Shown piece after piece: positions 11,031-62,091 of a DNA stretch of 64,000 nucleotides. This stretch comes from an uncultured Acidobacteriota bacterium. Its GTDB lineage: Bacteria; Acidobacteriota; Vicinamibacteria; Vicinamibacterales; JAKQTR01. The translations under genes were made by a program, and so were the position numbers. A model generated the notes under the pieces. That model was not told the DNA's origin. It did not search any database and was given only the letters and a program-made list of their open reading frames with translations. How positions within the stretch are numbered: the stretch's first letter is position 1; the number at the start of each line of letters is the position of its first letter. The stretch lies in NCBI GenBank assembly GCA_963806085.1, contig CAWDWR010000003.1, positions 943,498 through 1,007,497 of the forward strand. Reading direction: 5' to 3'.

Positions 11031-11892
11031 ATGCCTGAGAGTTCCCCTGCCGGACTCCTTCCTGTGGACGCAGTATCCGTGGGGCCTGGCCCTCCGGTGC
11101 CGCGCGCTGGATGGTGCGGCGGACCACTGTTTCACCACGCGCGAGCCGGTGTTGGGGGCAGGCCCGCTCGCGGCCGGGGACGGGTGGCATCGCGTCGCGC
11201 TCGCCATGGGCATCCCGGCCGCGTCGGTCGTCCGCCTGCGGCAGGTTCACGGCACGCGCGTCGTGAGCCTCCCTGGGCGGTCGCGCGTTTCCCCCCGAGG
11301 CGCCGGACTGGAACGTCGGCGACATCGCGGCGACCGACGATCCCGGCGTGGCGCTCGCGTGAAGGTGGCCGACTGCGTGCCGATCCTCCTGGCGGACGCG
11401 CGGCGCGGGGCTGTGGCGGCCGTGCACGCCGGCTGGCGCGGCACGGCTGCCGGCGCGGCGCGGTCGGCGGTCGGTGCGCTCTGCGCGCAGTTCGGCGCAG
11501 CGCCGGGCGATCTTGTCGCCGCCATCGGTCCCAGCATCGGCCCCTGCTGTTACCGCGTGGGCGAGGACGTGCGCGCCGCATTCGACGCGACGGGAGAGTG
11601 GGGCGGATCGCTTGACGCCTGGTTCAGCCCGTCACCGGCCTTTGCACCGCGGTGCGGCGTGCCCGGCACCGACCCATCAGCGTCGGGCGGCGGCCCGGCC
11701 CTGTTTCTGGACACCTGGAAGGCGAACGCCGATCAGTTGCAGGCCGCCGGTGTGCCGTCGTCGCAGATTCACGTGTCGCGACTCTGCACGTCCTGTTACA
11801 GGGAGACATTTCACTCCTACCGCGTCGATGGCGATCGGGCGGGGAGGATGATTGGGGTGATTAAGAAGAAGCAAGAAGCAAGAAGCAAGTAG
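11031..11892 (+). CDS. pgeF: YfiH/PgeF-family laccase-domain protein (purine nucleoside phosphorylase/peptidoglycan editing factor), frameshifted; start uncertain
   Basis: Motifs: LRQVHGTRVV, VKVADCVPILLAD, VHAGWRGTAAG, GPSIGPCCYRVGEDV, CTSCYRETFHSYRVDG..GRM. A short out-of-frame stretch lies around 11280-11360. Confidence 0.8.
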
Positions 11893-11969
11893 GATGGCCG
11901 GTTCCGCTGAACTCACCCTTCTGGCTTCTGACGAACGTCAGTTGGCCCTTCTGGCTTCTTGCTTCTTCT
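11863..11969. repeat. Heptad-repeat hairpin spanning the convergent pgeF / RNase H gene ends
   Basis: The left side carries (AGCAAGA)x3. A perfect 15-bp stem pairs GAAGAAGCAAGAAGC (11865-11879) with GCTTCTTGCTTCTTC (11954-11968). CCCTTCTGGCTTCT occurs twice (11916-11929, 11946-11959). Confidence 0.75.
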
Positions 11970-12358
11970 GATCGTCCATCGCCTCGTTCGCGAGGCGGTC
12001 GGCGTCGGCGTTGAACTCGCGCCGCACGTGCTCGAAACGCACGCGGCCGAGCTCCCAGACCAGACGACGTGCCTCTCCGTGCAGCGCCTGCAGGCCGGGG
12101 TTCTTCACCTTGTATTCGCCGCGCATCTGGCACACGAGCAGCAGCGAATCCGAGCGCACGGTGAGGTTCGGTGTAACCGTGCTCCTTCGCGTAGCGAAGA
12201 GCGGCGAGCAGCCCGCGGTACTCGGCGACGTTGTTGGTGGCGACGCCGATGGCTTCGCTGAACTCCGCGACCACGGTGCCGTCGGCGTCCGCGAAGCGCA
12301 CGCCGTAGCCTGCCGGGCCCGGGTTGCCCCGGGAGCCGCCGTCGATGTTGACGATCAC
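11938..12358 (-). CDS. RNase H family protein, one frameshift in this assembly
   Basis: MIVNIDGGSRGNPGPAGYGVRF..NNVAEYRGLLAALRYAKEHG, then in a second frame MRGEYKVKNPGLQALHGEARRL..RVRFEHVRREFNADADRLANEAMD. Confidence 0.75.
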
Positions 12359-25038: not shown

Positions 25039-26962
25039 ATGCGTCGAGTGACCGGAGCCGCCGCGATCCTGATCGCGTTCATCGTCACGCTCACGTTCGT
25101 CAACGCGGCCCCGCAGCAGCCCGGCGGCGGCTACGGCAACGCGTCGGCCATCACGGCCGACGAGCTCAGCACCTACCTTCATGTGCTGGCGTCCGACCAG
25201 CTCGAAGGGCGGAACACGCCATCGCGGGGGTACGACACCGCGTCGCTCTACATCGCCAGCCAGCTCAAGCAGTGGGGCGTGAAGCCGCTCGGCAGCACTA
25301 CGGGCACGAAGGGGCCGCTCCAGGCCTACTTCATGCCCATCGAACTGGTGAGCACCCAGCTGAACCCCGCGGGCATGAAACTCACGCTCACCGCGCCCAT
25401 GATCGTGGGACGGGGCGGGTTCGGCGGGTCTTCGATGGGCGGTCCGCGCACCTTCGAGTACGGGACCGAGTGGGCGCTCGGAGGCGGGGCGTTCGGCGGG
25501 TTCGGCGGCGGCCGGGGCGGCGGCGGGATGGCCGATCCGATCGACATCGCGGGCGCGCAGCTCGTCTTTGTCGGCAACGGCTACATCATCAACAAGACGA
25601 ACACGGACCCCTACAAGGGTCTCGACGTGAAGGGCAAGATTATGGTCGTGGCCGGCCTGCCCGCCGAACTCGCGGCGCTGCAGGCAGCGGGCCGTGGCGG
25701 CGGGCGTGGCGGCGCCACGCCGAACCCGCTCGGCGTCGAGAACACCGACTTCTTGACGCCGCAGGGCTACGCCGTGAAGAACGGCGCCCTCGGCATCGTC
25801 ATGATCCCGTCGTTCCAGCAACTGAGCGCCATGGCGGCGCCGGCGACGGGGCGGGCCGCGGGGCCGAACGGCCCGGCGTACCAGGTGGTCAGGTTCCAGG
25901 CGAACCGGCCGCCGTCGGTGCCGACGATCACCGCCGGCGTGGCGCTCACCAACGCCCTGTTCGTGGGCGAGAAGCTGACCGGCGCGCAGGTCTTCGAAGG
26001 CGCCGCGGCCGGCGCCAAGCTCGACTCCTTCGCCCTGAACGCGGAGAAGAAGATCGCGATTCAGACCGCGGTCACGAAGACCCCGGGCTCGACACAGAAC
26101 GTCGATCGGCATGGTCGAAGGCCGCGACCCGGTGCTCAAGAACGAGTTCGTCGTCATCTCCGCGCACCTGGATCACACGGGACTTGCCGCGGCGGCCCCC
26201 GGGGGCGACACCGTCAACAACGGCGCCGACGATGACGGATCAGGATCGGTGGCCGTGATGGCGATCGCGCGCGCCTACGCCCTCGGAGCGGCCAAGGGCA
26301 TCCGGCCCAAGCGCTCCATCATCTTCCTCTGGGTGACCGGAGAGGAAAAAGGGCTGTGGGGCTCGCAGTACTTCGCGCAGTTTCCGCCGGTCGACATCAC
26401 GAAGGTGGTGGCCGACCTCAACATCGACATGATCGGCCGCAGCAAGCCCCAGGGCTACACCGACCCGCCGTCGTACAGGCTGGTGGCGCCCGGCGAGGTG
26501 TTCGTGGTCGGTCCGAGGGTGAGCAGCGACGACATGGGCGCGATTGTCGCGCGCGTGGCCGCTGAGGTCGGCAAGCTGAAGATCAACGACTTCTACGACA
26601 CCACGGCGCCCGACGCGACGCACGACAACGCGGGGCCGCAGCCCAATGGCCAGCGGATCTTCTACCGCAGCGACCACTACAACTTCGCCAAGGTCGGCAT
26701 CCCGGTGGCGTTCTACACGACGGGCCTCCACCCCGACTATCACCGGCCATCCGACAGCCCGGACAAGATCGACTACCCGTCGATGGAGACCATCACCAGG
26801 AACATCGCGGCGGCGGCCTGGGTGATCGGCAACGCGGCGGGCCGGCCGAAGCTGAACGCCAAGCTGCCGGACATGCTGGTGAACGACATGAAGGCTGCGC
26901 AGGCGGCCGGCTGGGGCACGCTGACGCCGGTGATTCCGCCACTGCCCACGACGCCGTTTTAG
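25039..26962 (+). CDS. Secreted M28-family metallopeptidase with N-terminal PA-like region, one frameshift in this assembly
   Basis: A signal peptide is present. Motifs: SAHLDH, GADDDGSGS, VTGEEKGLWGS, DMIG, RSDHYNF. Frame change near 26100. Confidence 0.8.
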
Positions 26963-27078
26963 GAAGAAGCCAGAAGCCAGAAGCCAGAAGCCAGAAGAAG
27001 ATCCACCGGTGTAGCTCTGTCGTTCTTCTTGCTTCTGGCAATCGTCAGTAGGCCCTGCTCTGGATTCTGGCTTCTTCC
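26962..27078. repeat. Heptad-repeat compound hairpin filling the peptidase / hutI convergent spacer
   Basis: (CCAGAAG)x4 lies at 26970-26997. The outer stem pairs GGAAGAAGCCAGAAGCCAG (26962-26980) with CTGGATTCTGGCTTCTTCC (27060-27078) at 18/19 positions. The inner right arm is CTTCTTGCTTCTGG (27025-27038). The element touches both stop codons. Confidence 0.8.
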
Positions 27079-28320
27079 TCAGCAGACCTCGCCCTTTTTG
27101 ACCACCGCCCGAATCGCGGGAACGCCTACCTTCAGCAGGTCCACCGCCTCGCCGTCGAGGATGACGGCGTCGAGCTGCTTGCCGGCCTCGAGGCTGCCGA
27201 CCCGATCGTGACGGTCGATGGCGTAGGCGGCATTGATGGTCGACGCGACCAGCGCTTCTTCCAGCGTCATCCGCATGGCGAAGCAGGCGAGCGCCATCGC
27301 GAAGGGCATCGAGGGAGAGAACCCGCCGCCCGGATTGAGGTCGGTGGCGAGGGCCACCGGCACGCCGCCCTCGATGAGCTCGCGCGCCGGCGCGAAGCGG
27401 CCCAGCTTCAGGTAGAACGCGGCGATGGGCAGCAGCGTCGCGACCACGCCAGCGTCCTTCATCGCGTGGATGCCGCGCGACGCCGACGTACAGCAGGTGG
27501 TCCGCCGACCGCGCGCCCACCTTCGCGGCCACGAGGGACCCGCCGCTTTCCGCCAGTTCGTCGGCGTGGATGCGCGGCTTGAGGCCGTGCCGCTTGCCGG
27601 CCTCGAGGATCTCCTCGGCTTCGTCGGGCGTGAAGACGCCGGTCTCGCAGAAGACGTCGCACCACTCGGCGAGGCCGTCCCGCGCCGCAGCCGGGATCAT
27701 CTGGCGCACGAGCTGGTCGATGTAGAACCGCCGGTTCGCCCGGTGCTCGATCGGGATCTCGTGGGCGCCCATGAAGGTCGGCACGAGCTCGACGGGCTGT
27801 TCCGCGTTCAGGCGGCGGATGACGCGCAGCATCTTCAGCTCGGCGTCGGCCTGGAGGCCGTACCCGCTCTTGGCCTCGCACGTCGTGGTGCCGCAGCGGA
27901 GCATCTGGTCGAGGCGCGCGCGCGTCGCGGCAGCCAGCTCGTCCTCGGTGGCGTCGCGCGTCGCGCGGACCGTGGAGAGGATGCCGCCGCCTTCGGCGGC
28001 AATCTCGGCATAGGTGGCGCCGGCCAGGCGGCGGCGGAGTTCCTCGCGGCGATCGCCGCCGAAGACGACGTGCGTGTGCGGATCCACGAAACCCGGCACG
28101 ACCGTGCAGCCCGAGGCGTCGATCACCGTGGCGCCCGGACGCCGGCGGGCACAGCCGGTCGGCGTCGGCGGCCGGCCCGACGAAGGTGATGACGCCGTCG
28201 GCGGCGACAATCGACGCGCCGCGAATCGGGCGGGCATCCGCCTGCGCAGGGCCGCACTTGGGTGCGCCGCCGGCGCAGGTGAACACGACCCTGGCGTTGC
28301 GGATGAGCGTGCAGCGGCAT
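27079..28320 (-). CDS. hutI: Imidazolonepropionase HutI, frameshifted in this assembly
   Basis: Motifs: PGFVDPHTHVVFGG, CEAKSGYG, RIHADEL, ALATDLNPGG. Pieces lie in three frames. Confidence 0.85.
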
Positions 28321-38547: not shown

Positions 38548-38551
38548 AGAT

Positions 38552-38586
38552 CGGGACTCGGGATTCGGGATTCGGGATTCGCGAAC
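38552..38586 (+). repeat. Single-arm heptamer array (CGGGATT)n, G-rich on the htpX sense strand
   Basis: cgggact cgggatt cgggatt cgggatt cgcgaac starts 5 nt after the htpX stop. It fits G3N4G3N4G3N4G3. It shares its tail CGCGAAC-YGCRACGCC with the inverted copy at 60444-60478. Confidence 0.8.
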
Positions 38587-52094: not shown

Positions 52095-53400
52095 TTACCA
52101 TGCCGGCGCCGCGGCTTTCGAGGCGCGGGAGCACGGCGCCGAGCAGGAAGATCGAGCCTGCGACGGTGATCGCCGGTCCGGCGCTCCAGGCGGCGTCGAG
52201 GGCGCCCTCGGGATCGGCGGCCACCATCACGTCCGCGCCGGGATCGATGGCCAGCGCCGCCGCTCTCAGGGCGCCGGGATCGGCGGCGCGCGGCGTCGGC
52301 GGCGCCGTGAGGACCACGCGCGATCGCGCACGGCAGCAGGCAGCCGGAGCATCCCGCCGTAGTCCTTGTCGCGCATCGCGCCAAAGACGAGCGGCTGGCG
52401 CCCGCCCGGCAGGGCCTCGCGCAGGTACTCGGCCAGCGCGGCCGCTCCCGCCTCGTTGTGCGCGGCGTCGAGCAGCACCCGCCGCCCGTCGGCGAGGCGG
52501 CGCCAGTCGAGCCGGCCGGGCCACCTCGCCTCGCGCAGCCCGCGTTCGATGGCGGCCGCGGCACCGCCAAGCCCTCTCCCGACAGCGCTTCGAGCAACCG
52601 CACGGCGACCAGCGCGTTCTGGACCTGGTGGCGGCCCCTCAGACCCAGCGTCAGCGGGCCGTAGGCCCCCGCCGGCGTGCGCAGCGTCATCGTCGTCTCG
52701 CCCTCTGTCATCGTCGCCTGCACCGACGCGCCTTCCGCCGCGTCGCACGAACCGCGCTCCGCTCCGCGCGCACGCGGCGGCGATCACGGCGCGCGGCCCG
52801 GCGGCCCGTTCACCGCAGACGAGCGGCATGCCGGGCTTGACGATCCCGGCCTTTTCGACGGCGATCGCTTCGAGCGTGCCGCCGAGATACTGCTGGTGAT
52901 CCAGCGCGATGTTCGTGATCGCGCCCGCGCGCGGCGAGGCCACCGACGTGGCGTCGAGACGCCCGCCCATGCCCACTTCGAGCACCGCCACCTCGCACGT
53001 CGCGCCGCCTGAACATCTCGAAGGCGGCGGCCGTGGCCACCTCGAAGAACGTCGGCGTCGCCTGCAGCCGCCCGTCCGTCCGCAGCCGGTCGATGAGCAC
53101 GCGCAGGTGCTCCACGACCTCCTCGAGCTCAGCGGGGGCCACCTGCACGCCGTCGATGGTGAAGCGTTCCTCGATGCGGACCAGGTGCGGCGAGGTGTAG
53201 CAGCCGGTCCGGTATCCGGCGGCCGACAGGGCCGCCGACGCCATCGCGCACACCGACCCCTTGCCGTTCGTGCCCGCCACGGCCACCGACGGACACGCGT
53301 CCTGCGGCCTGCCCAGCGCGTCCGTTATGACCCGGATGTTGTCGAGGCCCAGCTTGTGGCCGTGGAATTCGAGGCCGAAGAGATACTCAAGCGGGTGCAT
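52095..53400 (-). CDS. folC: Bifunctional folylpolyglutamate/dihydrofolate synthase FolC, frameshifted in this assembly
   Basis: Motifs: [62 protein letters not shown]. At least 4 frame changes. Confidence 0.85.
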
Positions 53401-54237
53401 GCATGAATCGCAGGGCCTTGGCCACCGTGCGCCTTGAGCTCGCGCCGGTCGACGACCATGTCGATCATGCCGTGCGCGAGCAGGAACTCGCTGCGCTGGA
53501 ACCCGTCGGGCAGCGTCTGGCGGATCGTCTGCTCGATGACGCGCGGGCCGGCGAACCCGATGAGCGCCTTCGGCTCGGCGATGTTGAGGTCGCCCAGCAT
53601 CGCGAAGCTCGCCGTGACGCCGCCCGTCGTCGGATCCGTCAGGATCGAGAGGAACGGAATGCCGGCGCGGTCGAGCCGGGCGAGGGCGGCCGAGACCTTC
53701 GCCATCTGCATCAGCGACAGCGCCCCTTCCATCATCCGCGCGCCGCCCGAGCAGGACACGATGATGACCGGCTGACGCGAGGCCAGGCCGCGCTCAACCG
53801 CCCGGGTGATCTTCTCGCCCACGACGACGCCCATGCTGCCGCCGATGAAGCTGTACTCCATGGCGGCGACGACCACCGGGATGCCGTCCAGCGCGCCGCT
53901 GCCCACGATGACCGCGTCGAGGATGCCCGTGGAGGCCTGGCCGGCCCGCAGGCGGTCGCGGTACGGCTTCGTGTCGGTGAAGGCCAGCGGGTCCAAGGAC
54001 GAGAGACCCGCGTCGTGTTCCTCCCAGGGGCCGTCGAGGAGCGACCGGAGCCGCTCGGTCGCCGTCATGCGGAAATGGTGGGCGCACTTCGGGCAGACCT
54101 GGAGGCTGGCCTGCAGGTCCTTGTTGTAGATGACCTGCGTGCACGAGGGGCACTTGATCCACAGCCCCTCCGGCACCCGCACGGCCGTCGTCCGGCGCCG
54201 GCGCGATCGGCGTCTTCGCTTTCTTGAACCAGGGCAT
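53387..54237 (-). CDS. accD: Acetyl-CoA carboxylase carboxyltransferase beta subunit, frameshifted in this assembly
   Basis: N-terminus MPWFKK. The zinc ribbon is [23 protein letters not shown]. Also [11 protein letters not shown] and [10 protein letters not shown]. The C-terminus ends at TGA 53387-53389 in a second frame. Confidence 0.9.
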
Positions 54238-54250
54238 TCAGGAAAACTGT

Positions 54251-54367
54251 ATCAGAAGTCAGCATCCAGTAGTCAGTAGTCAGTAGTCAGTAGAAAGGCC
54301 ACGTCAGACCGCAGCGGCGTCCGACTGTGCTCTACTGGCTACTGGCTACTGGCTACTGGCTGCTGGT
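54251..54367. repeat. Heptad-repeat hairpin filling the whole dNK-accD spacer
   Basis: The left arm 54251-54293 degenerates toward its outer edge into (GTCAGTA)x3-4. The right arm 54333-54367 is (TACTGGC)x4 plus tgctggt. The units are complementary except for one T:G position per unit. The inner pair is GTCAGAC/GTCCGAC. Confidence 0.85.
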
Positions 54368-55071
54368 TACTTCCTCGGCACGTAGTACTGCGTCCCCCGG
54401 CCCATCGCCTTGAGCTGGCGGAGCAGGTCGTCCACCGCGTCGTCGCTCCGGCCGAAGTCGATCTGCGACGTTTCCACGACGAGCAGCGGCGTGGCCGTGT
54501 AGTGGAAGAAGAAGTGCTGGTACGCCTCGTTCAGCTCCTTCACGTACTCGGGGACGGGCGGTGCCCCTGGTGCTCGGGATCGCGGGCGCGGTCGCGCAGG
54601 CGCTTCAGCAGGATGTCCGTCGGCGCCTGGAGGTAGCACGACGAGATCGGGCGCCGGGATGTCGCGGGCCAGCAGGTCGTAGAGCCGCTGGTAGATGAAC
54701 AGCTCGTTGTCGTCGAGGCTCAGGTACGCGTAGATGCGATCGCGGTCGAACAGGTAGTCGCAGATGGAGACCTGGCTGAACAGGTCCGTCTGGCGAAGGC
54801 CCGACAGCTGGCGATGGCGGTTGAGCAGGAAGAACAGCTGCGCCTGGAACGCGGAGCCCGGCCTATCCTGGTAGAAGTCGGCGAGAAAGGGATTGTCCGC
54901 GTCCTCGAGGATGGCTGTGGCGTCGAGGCGCAGCGCCAGGCGCTCGGCCAGCGCCGTCTTGCCGGCGCCGACCGGGCCTTCAATCGCCAGGTAGCGGTAG
55001 TCCAATCTGCGGCGAGTATACCGACCGCCGCGCGGACAAGGCAAGGCGCGGTAAGATGGCCGCGTGATCAT
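54367..55071 (-). CDS. Deoxynucleoside kinase family protein; two compensating frameshifts; alternative TTG start at 55005
   Basis: Motifs: YLAIEGPVGAGKTALAERL, FLADFYQD..FQAQLFFLLNR, DYLFDRDRIYA. The central stretch (LVVLPPGADG..) reads properly in another frame (YLQAPTDILLKRLRDR). Confidence 0.75.
   Translation of the reverse strand: MITRPSYRALPCPRGGRYTRRRLDYRYLAIEGPVGAGKTALAERLALRLDATAILEDADNPFLADFYQDRPGSAFQAQLFFLLNRHRQLSGLRQTDLFSQVSICDYLFDRDRIYAYLSLDDNELFIYQRLYDLLARDIPAPDLVVLPPGADGHPAEAPARPRPRSRAPGAPPVPEYVKELNEAYQHFFFHYTATPLLVVETSQIDFGRSDDAVDDLLRQLKAMGRGTQYYVPRK

Positions 55072-60425: not shown

Positions 60426-62091
<1,666 letters not shown>

Follow-up and report, generated by a model that had tools for sequence, protein, structure and literature searches.

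The window analysed here is the whole 64,000-nt stretch of DNA taken from contig CAWDWR010000003.1 of an uncultured Acidobacteriota bacterium of the order Vicinamibacterales; the window has a G+C content of 70%. The genes dNK and accD follow each other on its minus strand, and the element under study is the hairpin between them, a 124-nt quasi-palindrome (54251-54374) in which heptamer arrays of the type (GTCAGTA)n face arrays of the type (TACTGGC)n. The assignment of dNK is based on a Pfam dNK domain called on the orthologous gene in three related contigs (L084, L085, and L087). The accD gene was confirmed by its N-terminus MPWFKK..., which matches the MAWFKK(A/T)RKPI of about 30 orthologs, and its product is closest to AccD of metagenome-assembled genomes of the Vicinamibacterales, the best-matching species representative reaching 80%. 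The features of the spacer are listed below in window coordinates.

54235..54237, minus strand: accD start codon ATG, 14 nt from the first heptamer unit
54246..54251, minus strand: TACAGT, a -10-like TAnnnT hexamer 8 nt upstream of the accD ATG, between hairpin foot and start
54251..54292: accD-proximal (left) arm; on the plus strand ATCAGAA (54251-57), GTCAGCA (54258-64), TCCAGTA (54265-71), and three GTCAGTA (54272-92)
54293..54332: asymmetric centre of 40 nt with a small inverted pair, GTCAGAC (54303-09) and GTCCGAC (54319-25)
54333..54374: dNK-proximal (right) arm, overlapping the dNK stop; on the plus strand four TACTGGC (54333-60), TGCTGGT (54361-67), and TACTTCC (54368-74)
54367..54369, minus strand: dNK stop codon TAA, the end of open reading frame (ORF) 54367..55071, inside the last array unit

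Tandem Repeats Finder assigned period 7 to both arms, with 6.0 and 5.7 copies, and a separate array scan agreed, which places both among tandem heptamers of at least three copies. The arms are convergent, intergenic arrays of complementary units 40 nt apart. The right arm runs into the dNK stop codon and the left arm ends just before the accD start, and the hairpin occupies the whole spacer, as the first-pass annotation of the sequence had described. Read on the gene-sense strand, the accD-proximal arm consists of three TACTGAC followed by TACTGGA, TGCTGAC, and TTCTGAT, the outer units being decayed, and the centre ends in CCTTTC directly 5' of the first TACTGAC. The same annotation had counted four perfect TACTGGC units opposite GTCAGTA units, each pair carrying a T opposite a G. 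All four TACTGGC units are indeed perfect, but only three GTCAGTA units are. The T:G pair is found in the three inner unit pairs, whereas the fourth TACTGGC faces TCCAGTA, which gives a C:G pair at the variable site and a T.C mismatch beside it. Unit 2 reads CAGCA in both arms, a compensated change.

The arrays lie far beyond chance, since 14-mer array patterns gave 6 and 10 matches where 0.01 and 0.07 were expected. An assembly artefact could be ruled out because the independent metagenome contigs L082 (97% nucleotide identity) and L090 reproduce the arm and the GCCAGTA/TACTGAC asymmetry.

Both strands were folded as RNA and as DNA. The plus-strand RNA forms a continuous stem with G-U pairs (-78.1 kcal/mol, z = -7.6), whereas the RNA of the minus strand, which is the sense of both genes, contains 1x1 A.C loops every 7 nt (-68.0 kcal/mol, z = -6.4). 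This agrees with the predicted strand asymmetry and amounts to about 10 kcal/mol, and the inner pair GTCAGAC/GTCCGAC has the opposite bias, with its G-U on the gene-sense strand, again as predicted. As DNA the two strands are nearly equal (-40.5 for plus and -38.6 for minus), and all four RNA and DNA z-scores are -6.3 or lower. The hairpin is thus extremely stable on either strand, and a difference of 10 kcal/mol would hardly discriminate between them.

Unit turnover in orthologous spacers

Among closer relatives (92-98% AccD identity) the element is present in all, and each ends in TTCTGAT-A(C/G/A)AGT...CTGA-ATG. Because the outermost unit TTCTGAT is common to all of them, the arrays of these orthologs are homologous and in register. 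Their inner units nonetheless vary between TACTGAC, TTCTGGC, and TTCTGTC, in 3 to about 10 copies.

L082 (AccD 97%): accD-proximal arm identical to that of the window
L083 (AccD 98%): about ten CTTCTGG
L084 (AccD 93%): seven CTTCTGT
L085 (AccD 92%): TACTGAC and TACTGGC mixed, with one perfectly matched unit within the same arm
L087-89 (AccD identical to that of L090): GACAGAA/GTCAGAA against TTCTGGC
L090 (AccD 92%): (CCAGTAG)x6, at the same place as the dNK-proximal arm of the window, against TACTGAA and two TACTGAC

One and the same AccD protein therefore adjoins either a GAA-type (L087-89) or a GTA-type (L090) element. A finer comparison is offered by L087 and L088, which are 98.8% identical at the nucleotide level and encode the same AccD protein. 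One arm has gained a unit and the other has lost one, against 9 substitutions in 1.9 kb, and the two spacers (L087:2311-2438 and L088:2165-2292) both measure 128 nt despite the shift of a unit between the arms. Changes in unit number therefore outpace base substitution by far, and copy number varies even between close relatives.

The order dNK-accD is kept in 24 more distant Vicinamibacterales loci, with spacers of 11-218 nt. Several of the long spacers contain heptamer hairpins built from unrelated units (GGCAAAA/TTTTGCA, GGCTGGG/CCCCAGT, and TTGGCAG/TTGCCAG), among them one of 218 nt with a folding energy of -123 kcal/mol. In 5 of the 24 loci the spacer is only 11-15 nt and the element is absent, a finding that the first-pass annotation had named in advance as one that would speak against its interpretation. 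In the comparison of orthologs it had also called for, the position of the mismatch is kept in the close orthologs, but the number of units varies and the direction of the asymmetry is not kept.

The reading that we favour, and hold to be probably correct, is that the window element belongs, as a single copy among many, to a lineage-wide family of quasi-palindromes built from heptamer simple sequence repeats (SSRs), and that its regular T:G pairs are a by-product of repeat copying. In this model, arrays of a G-N-C-A-G-W-A-type unit face each other across an asymmetric centre, from the dNK stop to just before the accD start. Slipped-strand mispairing would add and remove units at a far higher rate than that of base substitution, as the comparative pattern suggests, and this turnover would make each arm internally uniform, with old variants persisting only at the array edges. 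The arms would be kept largely complementary by hairpin-templated correction, that is template switching between the arms, by selection for pairing, or by both. The inner T:G pairs would then go back to a single transition from GCCAGTA to GTCAGTA (plus strand) that was copied through the accD-proximal arm and is as yet unmatched in the other. The ancestral state was probably GCCAGTA/TACTGGC, because the GAA-type relatives and the TCCAGTA unit of the left arm carry C/G at this position.

As an observation on sampling, four short-read metagenome contigs that carry accD (L081, L082, L083, and L091) end inside or just beside the hairpin. Such hairpins therefore break assemblies, and these spacers are under-sampled in metagenomes.

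The variable unit position and strand asymmetry

A metagenome scan for (CAGTAGY)n yielded at least 120 contigs with (GYCAGTA) arrays of four or more units. From the metagenome matches listed and the orthologs, 38 (about 40) hairpins of the form (GNCAGTA)n/(TACTGNC)n were assembled for statistics on the variable position. The pairs at this position were distributed as T-A 42, C-G 27, A-T 12, T:G 18, C:A 18, and transversion mismatches 20. Watson-Crick pairs accounted for 76 of 132 unit pairs, compared with 64.7 +/- 3.5 after shuffling within elements (P=0.002), and the order of variants is thus mirrored between the arms beyond chance. Only 6 of the 38 elements, the window copy included, are mismatched at every scored unit, and perfect palindromes exist as well (L102, L162, L193, and L199). 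The first-pass annotation was right in that the mismatch does not fall at random: in every close ortholog it is the N of GNCAGWA that is mismatched, and this position is hypervariable across the family, although the latter contrast is inflated by a regular expression that allowed no variation at the other six unit positions.

From the regular T:G pairs it had been concluded that selection acts on a strand-specific structure, so that the RNA or DNA of one strand forms a continuous stem, for example in a plus-sense antisense RNA. This inference did not survive the comparison. Selection is not needed to explain the regular spacing, because the copying of a unit with one substitution by slippage produces it, nor is it needed for the asymmetry, because a transition anywhere in a palindrome leaves G.T on one strand and A.C on the opposite one. 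In hairpins built from repeats, a mismatch that recurs periodically does not count as evidence of selection. In favour of strand selection are the mismatch always falling at the same unit position, the better folding of the plus strand by 10 kcal/mol, and the same asymmetry in the ortholog L090. Yet the better-folding strand flips among orthologs, being antisense in the window, L085, and L090 and sense, by 10-12 kcal/mol, in L087-89. Both strands of the window element fold at -68 kcal/mol or below, T:G and C:A pairs are equally frequent in the family, most unit pairs are Watson-Crick and mirrored, and L085 holds a perfectly matched unit in the same arm.

Gene direction was then used to orient the transitions. 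By arm alignment, the CAGTA family shows a trend towards G.U on the antisense strand (12 elements versus 5 with sense G.U; 40 versus 22 sites) that does not reach significance (p=0.14). The trend is gone when all families are taken together (43 co-directional heptamer hairpins, 10 versus 14, p=0.54), and in the non-CAGTA families it is reversed, with sense G.U prevailing by 8 to 4. A hand tally of folding energies gave a stronger antisense strand in 19 elements versus 7, a count that is confounded by loops and not significant, and merged pair counts were noisy, pointed in the opposite direction, and were not significant either. A conserved strand-specific design is not supported by these data, and we consider strand selection very improbable; a mild bias towards a weaker sense-strand stem may exist.

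Dispersal, polarity, and possible functions of the family

Two further heptamer hairpins in the window confirm the earlier view of the dNK-accD element as an archetype.

11860..11975: hairpin A, (AAGAAGC)n/(CTTCTKG)n with an inner CTGACGTTCGTCAG hairpin, between the convergent yfiH-like and rnhA genes
26960..27080: hairpin B, (AGAAGCC)n/(TTCTGGC)n, between the convergent M28-peptidase and hutI genes

The core of A matches the dNK-accD element of L084 (L084:2071-2268) with 88% identity over 60 nt (E=1e-15), and the core of B matches that of L087 (L087:2311-2438) with 80% identity over 66 nt (E=7e-9). The non-repeat core shared by A, B, and the elements of the relatives reads GGGCC-NAC-TGACG..CGTCAG.... 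Because these cores are homologous to dNK-accD elements, the hairpin family must have dispersed to unrelated loci. Several copies can occur on one contig (three on L109 and two each on L127 and L170), some of them sharing a core of about 60 nt. For the 46-nt centre of the window copy, no homolog was found among the sequences compared. Beside hairpin A it was observed that both convergent flanking genes read into the hairpin and end in ...KKQEAR....

Period 7 is the only enriched tandem period in the window and in the lineage sample. Six arrays in the window have period 7, while every other period in the range of 4 to 12 has 0-1; the 80 acidobacterial accD loci contain 27, compared with at most 6 for other periods, and 12.3 kb of the related contig L127 contain 14. 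Among 95 heptamer-array units (L001-L091 and the window), CTGA occurs in 34 and CTGAC in 22, far above chance.

The orientation of genes in the metagenome contigs was called from the G+C content at third codon positions and from open frames, not from annotation. With this orientation, the two flanking genes are co-directional in 43 of 55 heptamer hairpins, and the architecture reads upstream ORF stop, (GNCAGTA)n, asymmetric centre, (TACTGNC)n, and next start codon. In 14 of 26 cases (L085-L193 and the window) the upstream stop is a TAG that belongs to the array, offset by -1, -8, or -15 from the array start, and the repeats therefore remodel protein C-termini. The next start codon typically follows 4-30 nt past the array (59 nt in one case), often with a Shine-Dalgarno sequence in between. 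In a subfamily that includes the window copy, YTTTC directly 5' of the 3' arm was always on the gene-sense strand, 13:0 among co-directional cases.

Fixed polarity, together with the dispersal of the family, raises the question of mobility. The hairpins might be non-autonomous elements similar to miniature inverted-repeat transposable elements or to REPINs, pairs of repetitive extragenic palindromic (REP) sequences, that enter stop-to-start spacers by insertion of fixed polarity or by ectopic conversion, with the arrays serving as terminal inverted repeats. Homologous non-repeat cores at unrelated loci (A and B versus L084 and L087), several copies per contig, the 13:0 polarity, and different element types in the same spacer beside identical AccD all agree with this. 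In addition, each unit contains GTAG, and a GTAG tetranucleotide flanks the REP hairpins of the REP/RAYT (REP-associated tyrosine transposase) system. On the other hand, the copies are divergent rather than near-identical, and the centre of the window copy is unique in the 64-kb window and the contig fragments. No target-site duplication or clean boundary could be recognised even though empty orthologous sites exist (the 5 of 24), the edge units are in register among orthologs as expected for array turnover in situ, and many unrelated heptamer units give the same architecture, which points to a general slippage process. We regard a mobile element as an unlikely explanation.

A weak terminator-like site was called in the centre (minus strand, 54315->54298, tail CTTTCTACTG). 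At the outer hairpin, the U4 run does not follow the stem directly but lies 7 nt beyond it. A related heptamer hairpin, (CGTGAAT)n/(ACGATTC)n at L127:4079-4210, encloses a canonical terminator, in which a GC-rich stem of 20 perfect base pairs precedes the U-tract TGTTTTTT; terminators can thus lie at the heart of heptamer arrays. For the window element we tentatively propose, as a possibility somewhat short of probable, that it forms a very stable intercistronic or 3'-untranslated hairpin in the dNK-sense transcript around a weak terminator-like core ending in CUUUCUACU, with a role like that of REP sequences, enterobacterial repetitive intergenic consensus (ERIC) sequences, or other stem-loops between cistrons. 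Its effect would be to stop or pause transcription of dNK, or to shield the 3' end of the upstream mRNA, and expression of accD would depend on read-through or on the TACAGT box at the foot of the hairpin. The element may equally be a tolerated, nearly neutral passenger, which is a serious possibility.

In about 30 orthologs (L002-L028 and L082-L091), a TAnnnT hexamer (TACAGT, TAGAGT, TGTAAT...) precedes the accD start codon by 6-10 nt, whether or not a heptamer element is present. Its conservation suggests a leaderless or very short-leader accD transcript, the promoter function of the TACAGT box being inferred only. We also considered that the element acts as DNA, either through protein-binding or promoter modules, with CTGACT resembling the -35 sequence TTGACA, or in that the mismatches guard the palindrome from cruciform extrusion and SbcCD. 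The CTGAC core recurs in 22 of the 95 arrays, canonical TTGACA/TATAAT promoters are used in these genomes, and the mismatches are gathered at one unit position. Nevertheless, no CTGACT lies 16-18 nt from TACAGT, the best candidate having a 19-nt spacer and a 4/6 match, and a promoter scan of the window element called no promoter inside it. The perfect palindromes and the nearly equal DNA folding energies of the two strands likewise argue against a DNA-level role, which we judge to be highly improbable, although a DNA-level constraint on perfect palindromes may exist.

Another possibility is that repeat number serves as a tuning knob for accD, by analogy with the 5'-untranslated region (5'-UTR) of hmw1A in Haemophilus influenzae, in which an (ATCTTTC)n hairpin is processed by RNase III and the unit count sets expression (PMC12721329). 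Such a mechanism thus exists. In both systems, a heptamer SSR of variable unit number precedes a start codon and forms an arm of a long RNA hairpin. Here a distance of 14 nt separates the array from the accD ATG, near-identical strains differ in unit number, and in many members a Shine-Dalgarno sequence lies between the 3' arm and the ATG, so that the element is probably part of the downstream mRNA. The systems differ in that the other arm in hmw1A is a non-repeat, G-rich sequence whereas both arms are arrays here, and in that phase variation of an adhesin was demonstrated there, whereas accD has a housekeeping function for which phase variation is of no obvious use. Moreover, many orthologs are without the element, and the -10-like box between hairpin and ATG suggests that the accD mRNA may start downstream of the hairpin. 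A tuning knob is accordingly a rather improbable explanation.

Several observations weigh against the favoured reading of slippage and repeat copying with a hairpin at the end of the dNK transcript. Simple neutral slippage does not account for the strict polarity relative to the genes, for the recurrence of CAGTA/CTGAC cores across the phylum, or for the concentration of arm-to-arm mismatches on one unit position. The replacement of a GAA-type by a GTA-type array within about 5% nucleotide divergence could reflect mobility or ectopic conversion instead of turnover in situ, and the weak, non-significant excess of antisense G.U (12:5) points towards the interpretation of the first-pass annotation. 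As for termination, the inner terminator-like call is weak, and the outer hairpin was rejected as a canonical intrinsic terminator, the sense tails of the family being no richer in T than the antisense tails (5.2 versus 6.2 T in 16 nt).

Comparison with known repeats

Heptamers are the commonest long SSRs in many prokaryotes, according to the summary of Mrazek (2007) given in PMC4679880. The closest precedent is found in Xanthomonas, where each genome contains 70-75 convergent inverted pairs of GGGAATC heptamers (Rehm et al. 2015, PMC4692102). The present elements share with these pairs, as with heptamer long SSRs and the short tandemly repeated repetitive (STRR) sequences of cyanobacteria, tandem 7-nt units that are over-represented and intergenic. 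As in Xanthomonas, two convergent arrays can pair into a stem-loop or cruciform, related genomes differ in repeat length but keep the type (single or inverted), and occurrence between divergent genes is rare. The unit is not G-rich here, however, and no G-quadruplex is expected: GTCAGTA and TACTGGC lack the tract of at least three G per unit, with four units preferred, that defines the GGGNATC class. Further differences are that the unit sequence itself turns over between close strains, that one hypervariable position co-varies between the arms, that the polarity of the asymmetric centre is fixed, and that the element reaches from stop codon to start codon.

The TAACTGA repeats of marine Beggiatoaceae, cyanobacteria, and Bacteroidetes, with 169 direct sets and 1 indirect (MacGregor 2015, PMC4679880), are alike in lying a few nucleotides upstream of start codons with few canonical ribosome-binding sites nearby, and in having a similar unit (TAACTGA versus TACTGAC) with stop codons in each unit. 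The enrichment of CTGA and CTGAC described above resembles these repeats and the CAGT-containing STRR heptamers of cyanobacteria. Those repeats are almost all direct, whereas the arrays here are paired as a hairpin, and the unit differs by an insertion or shift.

REP sequences and bacterial interspersed mosaic elements (BIMEs), ERIC sequences, and Correia-type repeats are dispersed, co-transcribed intergenic hairpins thought to stabilise upstream mRNA or to insulate cistrons. In architecture only, the present elements resemble these and the stem-loops of selective RNA processing and stabilisation (e.g. PMC4423207), being dispersed hairpins located after stops or between cistrons; they differ from REP/BIME, ERIC, and Correia repeats in consisting of tandem heptamers instead of a conserved unique sequence. 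An Rfam search with the window element and five related contigs gave no match at the gathering score and only sub-threshold matches to miRNA precursors, which are typical of any long hairpin. In the literature searched, by unit strings and for Vicinamibacter and Luteitalea repeats, no earlier description of these heptamer elements in Acidobacteria was found. Among heptamer SSR pairs, the window element is an inverted pair with a polar core and stop-to-start placement.

More speculatively, the Acidobacteriota, and especially the Vicinamibacterales, could harbour an undescribed class of polar stop-to-start elements that act as evolvable intercistronic regulators. These would be dispersed hairpins with GNCAGWA/CTGAC heptamer stems and a hypervariable position co-varying between the arms, and their type would swap at one site within about 5% nucleotide divergence. 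We put this forward as a doubtful proposition. Possible roles of such a class may include termination or insulation, protection of mRNA ends, and stop-to-start coupling across the hairpin.

The heptamer hairpins fill gene junctions in an abundant, poorly studied soil phylum and change faster than their surroundings. If the hairpins modulate termination, mRNA stability, or translational coupling, they would add a pervasive layer of operon tuning that can evolve rapidly. Neutral hairpins would still provide a clean natural system for the concerted evolution of quasi-palindromes.

Apart from the hairpins, apparent frameshifts split several housekeeping genes of the window: accD (54185-54200), dNK (about 54560-54640), rnhA (11938-12358), hutI (27079-28237), and folC (52266-53400). 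In accD the window reads ccggacgacgg where relatives of 97-100% identity read ccggcgacgg, a +1 insertion. The frameshifts point to indel errors of the source assembly rather than to real pseudogenes.

Single heptamer arrays of a different kind also occur in the window.

38551-38581: single (GGGATTC)n array
60451-60478: single (GGGATTC)n array

Both fit the G-quadruplex-type GGGNATC repeat class. One is G-rich on the sense strand and lies 4 nt past a stop codon, and the other is G-rich on the antisense strand and lies 2 nt before the ATG of tgt. This placement is the rule reported for the GGGAATC repeats of Xanthomonas, and the unit recurs in the related contigs L111 and L114.

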